Assembly: GCA_027623675.1 (NCBI GenBank)
Contig: JAQBVF010000005.1
Coordinates: 64,001 to 128,000 of the forward strand
Source: Chloroflexota bacterium
GTDB lineage: Bacteria; Chloroflexota; Dehalococcoidia; Lucifugimonadales; UBA3495
Direction: 5' to 3'
DNA length: 64,000 nucleotides
Position numbers: made by a program. Position 1 is the first letter of the stretch; every line of letters starts with the position of its first letter. Positions 24,001 through 27,000 of this stretch are shown here, one piece after another.

Positions 24001-27000
24001 GCGTAGTCAATGCCGCCGCAGGCCAGGACGCCCGTGCCTTCCAGCACATAGACCACATGCTCCCACGCGTGGGTGTGGCCGCCGGTCTCGGGATGGCTCA
24101 CCGCGCCCGGGGCCATGGCGCCGTTATACAGCATCACGTAGGTGGGCACGCCGTCGTTCAAGCCAAGGATGCGGCTGCCGGTTTGGGCGTTCAGGTCGGC
24201 GAAGTTGCGGATGACCGGGGCTTCGCCTGTGCCGGCGCCGCCGTTGTTGCCGGCGCCTCCGCTCTGGGCCGCGATCAGCGGGTTGATCTCGACGCGGCGG
24301 ATGTTACCCTTGCCGCCGTCATTCAGGGTGTAGTGGTCCACATTGCCGGGGATATACATGGCATCGCCGGCTTTCACCGGGTACTCCTTGCCGTCGCAGT
24401 GGAGAGTGCCAACGCCCTCCATGATGTAGACCTCGTGCTCCCACTTGTGGATGTGGTGAGAGCTGGTCTTGCCCGGCTCGATCACCGAGTAGCTCATGGT
24501 GCAGGTGGGCGGGTTGTCGTCCAGGGAGATGAGACGGGCCGGCTGGCCTGGCTCGAAGGTTCTGAAATTTCTGATCACTGGTTCCATGGTGGCGGCTCCT
24601 TGTTCGGATATTCGTTACTAGTATAGCGGCAGAATCTTGCCGCAACGGAAGGCGCTCTCGCGGTCCAGTCAAGATTAATCGGACTGCCACTGGATATCAA
24701 CAGGGCGGGGTTAACGCGCCAGGGTTTTTCCAATATGACTTAATCGTCGATCTCGCCGCTCAGCCTGAGGCTCTCGAAGGGACGGCGCCGGTCTAGGTGC
24801 TGGTCAAGAGAAACAGGGTCCAACCCCAAAGGGTGGTTCGTTAGGCTCACCATGAGCGGCCATGTTACCTAAATGTTCTCGATGACAAAAACCCTGGTTA
24901 ATGGGCTGGGGCCATGCCGGCGCCCGAGGGCCTTCGCTCCCTGATGGTGAATACCGTCACAGTGGCGATGATCAAGAGGATGATGTTGCTCCAGATGGCG
25001 ATGTCGTAGGTGCCTCGGGAGTCGTAGAGCAGCCCGCCCAGGTAAGCGCCTAAGCCCGAACCCAGGGGCATCACGGCGAACATGGCACCGTAGATGGTGC
25101 CAAGTTTGGTGGTCCCGAACCGGTCTGAGGCATAGGCCGCGGTGATGGAAACCACGGCATTCCAGGAGAACCCCACCAGCAGCACCCCGGCGAGCAACAC
25201 GCCGATGCCAAGAGATGGAACATTGAGGAACGGTATCCCCATGGAGAGCAACACGAGGATGAAACCCAATGCCCTGAGATTGTAGGAAAAGCTCAGGTAG
25301 ATCCGCCGGCCGTGTCCGTCCGAAAGGTGTCCCAATACCAGCGCCCCGGCGATGGCGGCGGCGCCGATCAAGCTGAACGCTCCGGCGGCCACCATCTTGT
25401 GGTAGCCCAGGTCCTGCACGTAGGTGACGAAATGAGCGTTCACGAAGCTCATGGAATAGCCTCAAACGAAGTATCCCAAGGTTAGCCGGTAGAACAGAGG
25501 GGTATGGAACGCTTCCCGGACAGTTGCGTCCCGCCCCAGTAATTTCTCCCCATCAGACCTGGCTTGATGGCCGGCGGTTGTGCCGGCCCCAAACGGTTCC
25601 AACCCCATGTCCTGAGGCTTGTTTCGAATCAGCAGGAGCCCGGCGGGCAGCACCAGCACCAACAGCAACAAGCCTAAGAACCAGTAGGCATCTTTCCAGT
25701 CGAAGAGCACGAGGAAGAGCGAAGCTGCCGGTACCAGGATCATCGCCCCGAACGAACCCGCGCCGCTGACCAGCCCCATGGTCAGACCCCTGCGGGTGTG
25801 GAACCAGCTGCCGACCACTTTCGTCAGAATAGGGCCGGTGCCGAGGGTGATGCCGATGCTCATGATGGCGAACAGGGCGTAGAGCTGGCCCAAGCTCTCG
25901 ATGAACGGTATGAACAACAGTATCGTTCCCATCACCGCCACGCCGGAGAGCATGGCCGTCTTGGCGCTGTAGCGGTCGGCCAGATACCCCGCCAACGGAC
26001 GCAGCAGGCCAGAGATCATGAAGGTCAGGGCGAAGGCCAGCGAGAGGGAGCCGCGGCTCCAGCCGAACTCCTCGGTCATCGGCTTGAGAAAGACGCCGAA
26101 CGAGAACTGGCCGCCGGCAACCCCGAACGACACCAGCACGCATCCCGCCACCACGAACCAGCCGTAGAAATACTTCCGGCCGAATAATCTCATTCTTGGC
26201 TCTCCGCGGTTATACAGCTGGACCGGTCCGGGATTCCTCGTTTGTTTCGGGAAACTACCTGTTGCAAGCCGGGAATCACAAATGATTCCCGGCTTCGCTT
26301 AAACCTTAGCGAAACATTAGTGATCTTGGTTGAGGTCTGGCCGCCCCGCTAGCCGGTCTGCATGGGCAATGACGGGTCTGACGCCCATTCTGACATCGAA
26401 GCGTCGTACACCGCCACATTCTCGTATCCCAGCAACGTCAAGATGAAGGCGTCGTTGCTGGCCGCGATCCCCCCGCCGCAGTAGGTGATAACCCGCTCTG
26501 CGGGGTCCGCGCCGACCTGGGCGAACCGTTCCGCCAGTTGCTCGGCTGGGAGATAGGCGTGGGTGACCGGGTCCATCAGGTCGCCCGCCGGTACGTTGAC
26601 GCTGCCGGCGATGCGCCCGGCGCGCCCGTAGTTGGCGCCGCCGCTGCCCAGGTGCTGTTCCTGGCTTAACGCATTCAGCACGCAGGCGGCGCCCTGTTCC
26701 AACGCCGCCAGCACCTCGCTCTTATCAGCCATGAGCCCGGTCCTGGGTCTGGCGTGGAATATGGTGGGGGGATAGTCCCGTTGTTCCGTCGTTACCGGCC
26801 GGCCCTCCAGCTTCCATTTTTGAAGGCCGCCGTTCAGGACAAAGGCGTTGTCGAATCCGAAAGCCCGGAGCATCCACCAGATACGGGTCGCCCAGGAACC
26901 GGACGTTGAGTCGTACAGCACCGCCCGGGCGCCCACGCCCACCCCGTATCCGGACATGGCCCTGGCGAACTGTTCAACCGGCGGGAGCATGTATCGGAAG

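Follow-up and report, generated by a model that had tools for sequence, protein, structure and literature searches.

The closest described relatives of the protein analyzed here are two major facilitator superfamily (MFS) carriers. SfMCT from Syntrophobacter fumaroxidans, an L-lactate/H+ symporter (PDB 6G9X/6HCL; PMC6573034), is the best-matching solved structure by sequence (5e-31) and shares the 12-transmembrane (12-TM) MFS fold at ~25% identity, without selenocysteine (Sec). The oxalate:formate antiporter OxlT (PDB 8HPK/8HPJ) has the same fold (TM-score 0.80/0.88) and a weaker sequence match (1.5e-12), and the dedicated OxlT models scored far below their cutoffs (TIGR04259, 90.9 versus 335 bits; TIGR00890, for the OFA family, 111.7 versus 374.85 bits).

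Sec in membrane transport has been described in proteins of other folds. SaoP, an ABC transporter permease (bioRxiv 10.1101/2022.07.06.499078), resembles the present case in having a membrane-embedded Sec, in database entries truncated at the UGA, and in a family with Cys in a few members; its authors place Sec at a gating position of the translocation path. SaoP differs in its unrelated fold (a MetI-type ABC permease), in being an ATP-driven primary transporter, and in its conserved nine-gene locus, whereas the MFS gene has no conserved neighbors. In mechanism, the analogy that comes nearest to a Sec located in a transport path is the YeeE/YedE family of thiosulfate transporters (PF04143), in which conserved pathway Cys residues are proposed to pass a sulfur oxyanion along (PMC7449682) and some members have Sec for Cys in GUxSG forms (PMC13188914). 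YeeE/YedE proteins have an hourglass fold with nine TM helices and no sequence relation to the MFS protein, and any link in substrate is speculative. Homology to YeeE/YedE, SaoP, SO_0444, MerT-like proteins, or P-type ATPases was not found: MFS_1 was the only Pfam match, and the models for those families were not among the 19 matching NCBIfam models. An MFS selenoprotein was found neither in literature searches nor in passages of PMC13188914, PMC12013277, PMC1976440, and the SaoP preprint, whose supplements may hold unlisted candidates; the 2026 catalog of 119 selenoprotein families likewise lists no MFS member, in line with the first-pass annotation of this locus.

One gene across an in-frame TGA

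Two neighboring called genes on the minus strand of the window (the whole stretch of 64,000 nucleotides that was analyzed) are one gene. From sequence evidence, we consider it very probable that this gene encodes a 431-amino-acid (aa), 12-TM MFS transporter of SAR202-type Dehalococcoidia in which UGA codon 244 is decoded as Sec through SelA, SelB, SelD, and tRNA-Sec, guided by a stem-loop. The features are as follows.

24898..26193, minus strand: whole MFS transporter gene, 431 codons plus a TAA stop, from frame and translation, with 12 predicted TM helices
26200..26205, minus strand: GGAGAG, Shine-Dalgarno-like, 6 nt 5' of the ATG at 26193, as read from the sequence
25465..26193, minus strand: codons 1 to 243, covering the N-terminal bundle of six helices, the loop in the center, and TM7 as far as its 12th residue
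25462..25464, minus strand: in-frame TGA, codon 244, probably read as Sec, in the same alignment column across orthologs
24901..25461, minus strand: codons 245 to 431, for the remainder of TM7 and TM8 to TM12, translated and under purifying selection
25411..25500, minus strand: predicted TM7, residues 232 to 261, containing U244, Met248, Asn252, His254, Tyr258, and Asp261
25422..25462, minus strand: SECIS-like stem-loop starting at the A of the UGA, with its upper stem at 25451..25433

The first called open reading frame (ORF) comprises 243 codons (26193..25465, minus strand) and is terminated by the TGA at 25464..25462, after which the same frame stays open for 187 codons up to the TAA at 24900..24898; the second called ORF (24898..25452, minus strand) starts at Met248 of that frame. 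Translation with TGA as U yields 431 aa, with U244 within the motif LGYFV-U-GYSMSFVNAH (around it, ...LGYFV-U-GYSMSFVNAHFVTYVQDLGYHK), and the Pfam MFS_1 match (PF07690; 2.2e-53; 181.8 bits versus a cutoff of 33.4) covers residues 20 to 374 and thus spans the TGA. A scan for promoters and terminators gave no signal above chance. The piece present alone in public databases is codons 1 to 243: the best 120 database clusters in a whole-protein search (63 to 100% identity) are 238 to 259 aa long and cover 54 to 56% of the query, and in a search of 5.8 billion clusters, no full-length protein among the candidates scored was more than 38% identical to residues 225 to 431. The half-length product is publicly labeled "MFS transporter," "sugar phosphate permease," or "hypothetical protein." The proposals of the first-pass annotation that the two called genes form a single 12-TM transporter and that public annotations end at the TGA are thus confirmed.

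The TGA occupied the identical column in all 43 orthologs (six GTDB families; 38 to 100% identity) found in a 401-genome sample of the order, as had been claimed for codon 244; the earlier count of 13 full-length matches from at least five families, with TGA in the column in 12 of 12 loci read, was a lower bound. A partial match in another genome (G111), previously taken for a broken fragment, is indeed one: it covers residues 1 to 164 and contains three TGA and one TAA codon. When the genome collection was searched with a motif tolerant of TGA, TGC, and TGT, TGA was found in 119/119 among the matches listed, and metagenome contigs contained at least 120 matches to the TGA form and none to the TGY (Cys codon) form. 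The Sec form is obligate within the clade, on the basis that the Cys version of the motif was absent from both of these large collections, on the genome side among the matches listed. Frameshifts or insertions were seen in 3 or 4 of the 119 genome loci, and the 80 genome records with titles were all Dehalococcoidia, Chloroflexota, or SAR202 metagenome-assembled genomes.

The sequence beyond the TGA bears the marks of a coding region. Median dN/dS was 0.195 for codons 245 to 420 and 0.235 for codons 10 to 243 (dS of ~1.35; 311 of 400 sampled pairs usable), and in the 9 nt from the TGA to ATG248 all variation is at third codon positions, apart from one T/A swap that exchanges Ser and Thr; from these two results we conclude that the part 3' of the UGA is translated. 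The terminal stops of the same 43 genes are mixed (26 TAG, 9 TGA, and 8 TAA), while the internal stop is TGA in every one.

The machinery for Sec is complete in the source genome, as the first-pass annotation had stated: tRNA-Sec (70.4 bits, anticodon tca), selB (347.7 bits), selA (554.8 bits), and selD (380.3 bits) all scored above their curated cutoffs. The selD gene itself contains one TGA. Among the other carriers of the transporter, selA was above its cutoff in 41 of 42, and the remaining one (G352) has tRNA-Sec and selB. Since selA was present in 370 of the 401 genomes of the order, its co-occurrence with the transporter cannot discriminate.

RNA structure downstream of the UGA

An RNA-level constraint follows the UGA. 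The hairpin UGAGC/GCUCA reported by the first-pass annotation is present, and it caps a longer stem-loop whose first base is the A of the UGA: a lower stem (columns 3 to 9 with 37 to 43) is followed by an internal loop and by an upper stem (columns 14 to 18 with 28 to 32; 25451..25433) with the apical loop UUCGUGAAY. In the source genome, the first base of the hairpin stem lies 10 nt past the last base of the UGA, and its loop, UUCGUGAAC, ends in C where the consensus has U. Across 12 pairs (1,368 cells), 89.0% of positions were paired, versus 25.5 to 39.6% when the partner strand was slid, and the upper stem appeared in the single-sequence minimum free energy (MFE) fold of 123/140 sequences. 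The codons under the structure are frozen: among 101 orthologs, Phe250 is always TTC, Val251 is always GTG, and Ala253 is GCT in 84, versus 13% GCT over the whole gene. Compared over the conserved columns of the gene (24 of them 2-fold and 57 4-fold), synonymous entropy is lowest at codons 250, 251, and 253. The stem-loop, within codons G245 to about T257, would guide Sec decoding.

The statement that covariation is weak held except at one pair. Pair 16-30 covaries among 114 distinct sequences (AU in 87, GC in 24, UA in 1, UG in 1, and another combination in 1), and it is the only clean case in the stem-loop; its distribution follows the split into two subclades and so may reflect a single event. 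The number of pairs changed on both sides (3) was not above that in shuffled alignments (2.7 on average; 335 of 500 shuffles reached 3). RNAalifold folded the 48-nt alignment differently, into a weak consensus (-3.17 kcal/mol) that lacks compensated pairs; we did not adopt it because it leaves the compensation at 16-30 unexplained and because the upper stem recurs in the 123 single-sequence folds.

The published model of bacterial SECIS (bSECIS) elements, as set out in section 5 of PMC13188914, describes an apical loop of 3 to 9 nt, an upper stem of 4 to 16 bp, a G in the first two loop positions, 16 to 37 nt between the UGA and the loop, and an MFE of -7.5 kcal/mol or lower. The sizes of loop and stem fall within these ranges, whether the structure is drawn with a 5-bp upper stem and a 9-nt loop or with seven pairs and a CGUG loop. 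A C-G-U-G loop, with a G in its first two positions and a spacing of 17 nt, requires U19-A26 and U20-A25 to be closed; their bases allow a standard pair in 114/114 and 112/114 sequences, respectively, yet they never vary. If the loop is instead the 9-nt UUCGUGAAU, it opens with two U residues and lies 15 nt from the UGA. The 48 nt from the UGA had a median MFE of -12.6 kcal/mol (140 sequences) or -13.1 kcal/mol (114 sequences), below the published limit, while the upper hairpin by itself is weak (median of -5.8 kcal/mol with 5 bp and -3.9 kcal/mol in the seven-pair version); the seven-pair hairpin reached -7.5 kcal/mol or lower in 0/114 sequences.

Fold, transport site, and Cys relatives

The fold is that of the MFS. 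The AlphaFold 2 model (mean pLDDT, 91.1; pTM, 0.89) has 12 long helices, and the closest structures in a Foldseek search were SfMCT 6zgs (3e-17) and OxlT 8hpk; 481 PDB matches had an E value of 0.001 or lower, and the 49 listed are membrane transporters, mostly of named MFS or SLC families. Because predicted TM7 comprises residues 232 to 261, the TGA falls inside a helix, with U244 placed about 12 residues into this first helix of the C-terminal bundle. None of the 19 matching NCBIfam models reached its own cutoff, the best being NF049980 for SfMCT (2.6e-45; 154.7 bits, under a cutoff of 320), and none was a selenoprotein model, as had been noted.

The first-pass annotation placed the protein in the SfMCT lactate transporter type. 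The fold and proton site bear this out, the substrate site does not, and NF049980 stayed below its cutoff. SfMCT residues H250, D257, D378, and Y383 align with H254, D261, D391, and Y396, which are present in 101, 93, 98, and 101 of 101 orthologs, respectively, so that a proton-coupled MFS carrier of the rocker-switch type appears most likely. SfMCT F359 also aligns with an invariant residue, F372. The substrate site would differ in having neither the carboxylate-binding Arg of TM8 nor the Tyr of TM4: the column of SfMCT R280 (residue 284) holds Ala in 58, Ser in 21, Thr in 13, and Gly in 8 of the 101 orthologs, and that of Y119 (residue 118, in a gapped stretch and less certain) holds Gly in 72, Ala in 26, and Ser in 3. 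The columns of OxlT R272 and K355, which we take to be its substrate-binding residues, are Ala284 and Met375, with no basic residue at either. Since the carboxylate ligands of SfMCT are absent, the cargo is, as judged from these aligned residues, neither lactate nor oxalate.

Met248, invariant in 101/101 orthologs, would lie one helical turn from Sec244 on TM7, and the invariant Met375 of TM11 is aligned with C362, one of the residues through which SfMCT contacts its ligand. SfMCT TM7 also has a Cys-Gly (YFCGSF) at the equivalent point, one residue out of register in an ungapped alignment; the accessible part of the SfMCT paper (PMC6573034) names no TM7 residue at the level of residue 244 among the ligand contacts. 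Sec244 may face the transport path, the conservation moment of TM7 (0.016 to 0.036) being too weak to orient it, and could make direct selenolate contact with a thiophilic substrate. A more specific and decidedly tentative idea, which we regard as possible but unlikely, is that the Sec244 selenolate lies in the translocation path and forms, perhaps with Met248, Met375, and His254, a soft-ligand site at which the cargo passes by way of short-lived Se-S, Se-Se, or Se-metal bonds.

The Cys-bearing relatives examined all carry that residue where the transporter has U244. In alignment A2, the column is invariant as Sec or Cys in all 61 sequences, with Sec in 28 and Cys in every one of the 33 Cys homologs; Sec244 would thus replace a Cys that is invariant across this MFS subfamily. 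The closest paralog in the source genome (C10:52624-53883; 30.7% identity) reads SYFVCGTT here, as the first-pass annotation had it. In the tree, the Sec clade forms a single branch (SH-aLRT, 97) that is sister to Cys forms from other Chloroflexota, represented by six genes (in G705, G642, G575, G666, G566, and G782) with the motif G[YF][AF]VCGFTM[SA]FA[NS]TH and 38 to 42% identity to the Sec protein over the full length. Like the Sec protein, these homologs keep the TM7 motif, His254, Asp261, Trp344, Met375, and Tyr396; unlike it, they encode the residue with an actual Cys codon, either TGC or TGT. Only one of the six retains an intact upper stem, fold z-scores are -1.3 to +0.7, and the stem-loop was missing from 11/12 Cys forms. 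One Cys-to-Sec change at the base of the clade would suffice, with Sec kept without exception afterwards. Since the sister clade has Cys in Sec-competent organisms (selA and selB were present in all five genomes checked), the two clades form a clean natural Sec/Cys pair.

Gene neighborhoods gave no clue to the substrate at the loci of either the Sec clade or its Cys sister clade. The neighbors in the source genome each recur at no more than 2 of 115 loci (those of 4 kb or more), in agreement with the earlier view that they are not conserved. Of the 101 loci that carry the full gene, 16 have as their neighbor a divergent M24 peptidase/creatinase-like gene, going by its own ORF cluster, and 21 going by its shadow ORFs; next in frequency come a DctP-type binding protein (15 loci), a monooxygenase of the luciferase-like type (13), and another MFS gene (8). 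The largest neighbor cluster (48 ORFs, 21 loci) is not a real gene, consisting of shadow ORFs of this M24 neighbor. As for the Cys sister clade, GcpE adjoins three of six loci and an HxlR-type regulator adjoins one.

Alternative readings and significance

The organization of the locus also resembles that of a split transporter, a rival that the first-pass annotation had not raised, in which UGA244 would be a true stop, the overlapping GAGG a Shine-Dalgarno sequence, and ATG248, 7 nt on, a restart, so that two halves assemble. MFS halves made separately can complement each other. All copies have UGA-GG-N-UAY-WCN-AUG, which looks like a stop, a Shine-Dalgarno sequence, and a start, and gene callers begin the second ORF at ATG248, invariant in 101/101. 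However, ATG248 appears to be older than the stop, because the uninterrupted Cys relatives also have Met248 (CGFTM), and the supposed spacer is homologous to their CG[FY][TS]; its codons keep Gly-Tyr-Ser/Thr with third-position variation only, even between genes at 38% identity. The break would fall inside predicted TM7 (232 to 261) rather than in the central loop and would delete residues 244 to 247, the start codon would be buried in a conserved stem (columns 14 and 15 are paired in 114/114 sequences), and the internal stop is never TAA or TAG though the terminal stops of the same genes vary. As this reading also leaves the frozen GTG, TTC, and GCT codons and the A-U to G-C compensation unexplained, we regard it as extremely unlikely. 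The reading of the TGA as a nonsense mutation in a decaying copy, or as an assembly error, draws on the few broken copies (the G111 fragment and loci L083, L102, and L123, with an insertion or frameshifts), but against it stand more than 160 species-level genomes and at least 120 metagenome contigs that share the codon at this column, together with the dN/dS of 0.195 after it. The stretch also occurs in two DNA runs, though both may be its source. Conservation of the TGA effectively refutes decay and artifact alike.

Readthrough that inserts another residue, e.g., by a near-cognate or suppressor tRNA for Trp, Cys, or Gly and stimulated by the stem-loop, is consistent with the sequences insofar as what they record is continued translation and an RNA structure, not the identity of the inserted residue. 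Against it stands the homologous residue: all relatives examined have Cys there, the hallmark of Sec/Cys exchange. Insertion of Cys would need only a plain TGY codon, of which the metagenome scan found none, and TGA is an ordinary stop in the carrier genomes, ending 9/43 orthologs. The Sec system is complete in the source genome and the carriers, and the geometry would fit the published bSECIS model, with a 4- or 9-nt loop, an MFE of -12.6 kcal/mol, and, if the two extra A-U pairs close the loop, 17 nt from UGA to CGUG. We therefore consider readthrough with a residue other than Sec very unlikely, and we infer that UGA244 is decoded as Sec.

If this is correct, the transporter would be the first selenoprotein in the MFS, the largest family of secondary transporters, and among very few selenoproteins with Sec inside a membrane helix. 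The invariance of the TM7 Cys in a large uncharacterized MFS subfamily suggests that this position is central to function, and the natural Sec/Cys pair could be used to ask what role selenium plays in a transport pathway. Should the soft-ligand reading be true, the bonding chemistry would be undescribed for any MFS transporter, and the protein might serve deep-ocean SAR202 as a dedicated importer that takes up, with high affinity, a soft metal or a reduced species of sulfur or selenium; according to a 2026 review, prokaryotes have no known specific uptake system with high affinity for selenium. The gene is spread over at least six families of SAR202-type Dehalococcoidia and, because it is misannotated everywhere as a half-length product, genome-based SAR202 transport inventories and marine selenoproteome counts miss this transporter.

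One MFS gene with a conserved in-frame TGA

Our results confirm that a single major-facilitator (MFS) transporter gene, interrupted by an in-frame TGA, lies in the window, made up as follows:

26193..25465, reverse strand: N-terminal open reading frame (ORF) of 243 codons, ending in TGA
25464..25462, reverse strand: in-frame TGA, codon 244
to the TAA at 24900..24898, reverse strand: C-terminal frame, 187 codons open after the TGA, same frame

With the TGA translated as selenocysteine (Sec, U), the product has 431 aa and carries U244 in ...RLTLGYFV-U-GYSMSFVNAHFVTY...; the second ORF of the gene callers (24898..25452) starts only at Met248. 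Pfam MFS_1 covers residues 20-374, spanning the TGA (2.2e-53), and no NCBIfam model reached its cut-off, the top one being SfMCT NF049980 (154.7 bits; cut-off, 320). The genome encodes tRNA-Sec (70.4 bits, anticodon tca), selA (554.8 bits), selB (347.7 bits), and selD, which itself carries one TGA. Since the ORFs, the MFS_1 span, the NCBIfam result, and the Sec machinery agree, the first-pass annotation was accurate in describing one MFS gene split by gene callers, without a hit to an NCBIfam selenoprotein model, in a genome equipped for selenocysteine. It had also stated that public entries end at the TGA, and the best 120 database hits to the whole protein are indeed fragments of 238-259 aa covering 54-56% of it. 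For residues 225-431, no full-length protein more than 38% identical was found among the scored candidates of 5.8 billion protein clusters.

The read-through protein was searched against a sample of 401 genomes from the GTDB order to which this one belongs. The 43 matches, including the genome under study (38-100% identity, 6 families), each have exactly one TGA and no other stop, and the TGA column is identical in all 43 extracted loci (motif G[YF]F[VIT]-U-GY[ST]M[SG]FV[NH][AG]H), as had been claimed from fewer loci. Weaker matches (at most 36% identity, among the matches listed) contain no in-frame stop, except for one with TAG. A DNA motif allowing TGA, TGC, or TGT at codon 244 and, over the ten residues that follow, any synonymous codon occurs at at least 119 places in one-genome-per-species contigs, with TGA in 119/119 of the matches listed; all 80 titled records among the matches listed are Dehalococcoidia, Chloroflexota, or SAR202 MAGs. 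In metagenome contigs, the TGY (Cys-codon) version of the motif gave no match, and the TGA version, which served as the positive control, gave at least 120. The 43 genes terminate in TAG (26), TGA (9), or TAA (8); because these stops vary and the internal one never does, TGA is an ordinary stop here and codon 244 is held to UGA. Decay or artefact as the source of the TGA is excluded by this conservation.

A few copies are disrupted: one locus (L083) has an insertion of ~1 kb after residue 360, the frame is shifted near residues 353-374 in L102 and near residue 164 in L123, all three in genome contigs, and at G111:C2:1489896-1490387 only residues 1-164 are left, with 4 stops (3 TGA and 1 TAA). 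Either pseudogene formation or errors in long-read assembly may account for these copies.

Decoding of the UGA

Selection on the protein continues past the TGA. The 101 distinct full-length coding sequences (from 111 full-length; 7 further loci with short frames were left out) gave 311 usable pairs of 400 sampled, the others being saturated or nearly identical; at a dS of ~1.35, median dN/dS was 0.195 for codons 245-420 and 0.235 for codons 10-243. The 9 nt from the TGA to ATG248 show third-position variation only, plus one Ser/Thr-swapping T/A change, in the 43 loci, which came by protein search and are hence independent of the DNA motif.

A stem-loop appears to follow the UGA. In a gap-free alignment of 114 distinct 48-nt stretches starting at UGA, standard base pairs fill 89.0% of the 1368 cells of the 12 proposed pairs, versus 25.5-39.6% with the partner slid by 1-3 columns, and 0/500 shuffles match the observed percentage paired, the doubly changed cells (51 versus 21.8), or the covariation score; the number of pairs showing double change (3) is not above shuffles. 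The 5-bp upper stem (columns 14-18 with 28-32) is present in the minimum-energy folds of 123 of 140 single sequences (median minimum free energy, -12.6 kcal/mol), and roughly half to 58% of them also have the lower stem (columns 3-9 with 37-43), which starts with the A of UGA. Covariation is clearest at pair 16-30 (A-U 87, G-C 24, U-A 1, G-U 1; n = 114), to which codon 249 (Ser/Gly) contributes its first base and codon 253 (Ala) its silent third base; the change at this pair may be a single event, since it tracks a two-subclade split. Independent support for an RNA element comes from the freezing of silent sites: Val251 is GTG and Phe250 is TTC in 101/101 sequences, Ala253 is GCT in 84/101 (versus 13% of Ala codons in these genes), and codons 250, 251, and 253 show the lowest entropy of all conserved columns, 57 of them four-fold and 24 two-fold degenerate. 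The median fold z-score of 30 sampled Sec forms is -1.9; Cys forms (homologues with a Cys codon in this column) range from -1.3 to +0.7, and the upper stem is intact in 1 of 12 of them. Loop size, stem length, and energy agree with the bSECIS model (PMC13188914, section 5); the model's rules of a G in the first two loop positions and a spacing of 16-37 nt would also require that the loop be narrowed to CGUG by two A-U pairs, both invariant (spacing then 17 nt). Two results count against the stem-loop: the RNAalifold consensus of the 48-nt alignment is a different, weak fold without covariation, and the upper hairpin alone reaches only -5.8 kcal/mol.

Two variants deserve mention. A Cys form with TGT (L308, G566:C57) has all 5 upper-stem pairs (AUGAGU...ACUCAU), which may be chance or a hint that the SECIS arose from pre-existing codons. 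In loci L036 and L046 (G124 and G204), Ser249 is TCG instead of AGC, with AAC and GCA or GCG; these codons break two usual stem pairs and allow an alternative hairpin, CGUU-CGUG-AACG, perhaps a second, small compensatory rearrangement.

The sequence UGA-GG, 7 nt, AUG could also be taken for a stop codon overlapped by a Shine-Dalgarno motif (GAGG) and followed by a start codon, as expected of a split gene in which UGA stops translation and ribosomes re-initiate at Met248. However, the break would fall inside TM7 (helix 232-261 of the predicted model), at the cost of four residues of that helix; the three "spacer" codons vary in the manner of coding sequence and have as their homologue the CG[FY][TS] of relatives without an interruption, in which Met is already present at 248; the AUG itself is paired within the conserved stem; and the stop is never TAA or TAG. 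For these reasons we consider re-initiation most improbable. Read-through with a residue other than Sec, for which we see scarcely better prospects, would leave the absence of a plain Cys codon unexplained. A Sec-containing MFS transporter, the interpretation of the first-pass annotation, is thus supported, and we hold it to be highly probable.

Sec and Cys forms and the novelty of the family

Column 244 is invariant in a 61-sequence alignment if U and Cys are taken together: 28 orthologues have U there, and the remaining 33 sequences, 6 same-order paralogues and 27 MFS proteins of other bacteria (27-33% identity), have Cys. F242, G245, H254, and Y396 are invariant too. The closest paralogue in the same genome reads SYFVCGTT here, as had been noted. 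In a phylum sample of 401 genomes, six from two other families carry uninterrupted homologues 38-42% identical, with G[YF][AF]V-C-GFTM[SA]FA[NS]TH. A quick IQ-TREE phylogeny (48 rows, 19 of the 27 distant rows omitted) placed the 28 Sec sequences on one side of a single branch (SH-aLRT 97), the six Cys forms as their sister (support 83; both together 99), and the in-order Cys paralogues on the next branch; a second tree agrees. A single Cys-to-Sec change would suffice for this pattern; as the tree is midpoint-rooted, the direction of that change is read from the outgroups, all of which have Cys. Five of the six Cys carriers were checked and also have selA and selB, so Sec competence does not simply sort Cys from Sec forms.

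The accessible part of a 2026 review of 119 prokaryotic selenoprotein families (PMC13188914) has no MFS, PF07690, OFA-, or monocarboxylate-type entry, in line with the earlier claim; its transporter-related entries are MerT-like, P-type ATPase, YeeE/YedE, SaoX, SaoB, SaoP, SaoC, and SO_0444. In full-text searches of the openly accessible literature, no MFS selenoprotein was found, nor is one mentioned in the available parts of the deep-Sep and Olavius symbiont papers. Identified by classical Sec/Cys logic, the predicted protein would establish a new selenoprotein family and be the first of the MFS.

Transporter type and genomic setting

AlphaFold2 (61-sequence alignment) predicted a 12-helix MFS fold (mean pLDDT 91.1, pTM 0.89) whose top structural matches are SfMCT (3e-17) and OxlT (TM-score 0.80/0.88); SfMCT is also the top sequence match among solved structures (5e-31). 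In SfMCT, according to PMC6573034, transport requires H250, a cavity-facing residue at the periplasmic end of TM7, D257, D378, and Y383 are likewise essential, and R280 and Y119 hold the carboxylate. A HMMER alignment equates the first four with H254 (101/101 orthologues), D261 (93/101), D391 (98/101), and Y396 (101/101); because they are kept, proton coupling of the SfMCT kind can be proposed with moderate confidence. In contrast, R280 corresponds to A, S, T, or G at position 284 and, in a gapped and less certain stretch, Y119 to G, A, or S at position 118; the ligand-contacting C362 is an invariant Met375. The assignment to the SfMCT type thus holds for fold and proton site and fails for the carboxylate ligands, whose replacement suggests that the substrate differs from that of SfMCT and is not a carboxylate.

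Sec244 would lie in TM7 near mid-membrane, 10 residues below His254, with invariant Met248 one turn above; the conservation moment of TM7 is weak and does not discriminate between orientations of residue 244. No second Cys is conserved among the 101 orthologues (position 18 is Cys in 61), so an intramolecular selenenylsulfide switch is unlikely. As a best guess, the selenolate might touch a thiophilic cargo in the transport path, by analogy with the Cys relay proposed for YeeE (PMC7449682) and with SaoP, an ABC permease whose Sec is placed at the gate; such direct chemistry is a tentative and rather doubtful idea.

The gene is flanked by a sulfur-flavoured set:

26349-27299, reverse strand: two-domain rhodanese, beside the Sec-MFS gene
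27552-28625, forward strand: sulfite-oxidase-type molybdoenzyme (Oxidored_molyb and Mo-co_dimer)
23877-24587, reverse strand: bicupin
23409-23855, reverse strand: F420H2-dependent quinone reductase

As previously reported, these neighbours are not conserved: of the 115 loci spanning at least 4 kb, 2 also have the cupin, 1 the molybdoenzyme, and 1, weakly, the rhodanese. Across the Sec-MFS loci compared, neighbours gave no pointer to transporter type or substrate. A divergent M24 peptidase/creatinase-like gene lies upstream of the Sec-MFS gene at L104:953-2239 (reverse strand) and some 20 other loci, roughly a fifth, often with a luciferase-like monooxygenase next. Between the rhodanese and MFS genes, an inverted repeat whose 13-bp arms match perfectly around a 3-nt loop (26267-26295, reverse strand; AAGCCGGGAATCA / TGATTCCCGGCTT) lies 74 nt before the MFS ATG with no T-run after it; it could be a rhodanese-gene terminator or a regulatory site.

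A second selenoprotein gene of the genome is selD (C3:53424-54344, reverse strand; locus L013), with the in-frame TGA motif ...HCAG-U-AAKLSQ... and, ~20 nt 3' of the TGA, a GC-rich stem with a GUC loop whose geometry is unlike that of the Sec-MFS stem-loop. As selA exceeds its curated cut-off in 370 of the 401 sampled genomes, the Sec system is present almost throughout this order-level lineage, and a systematic look at the selenoproteome of the order may be worthwhile.
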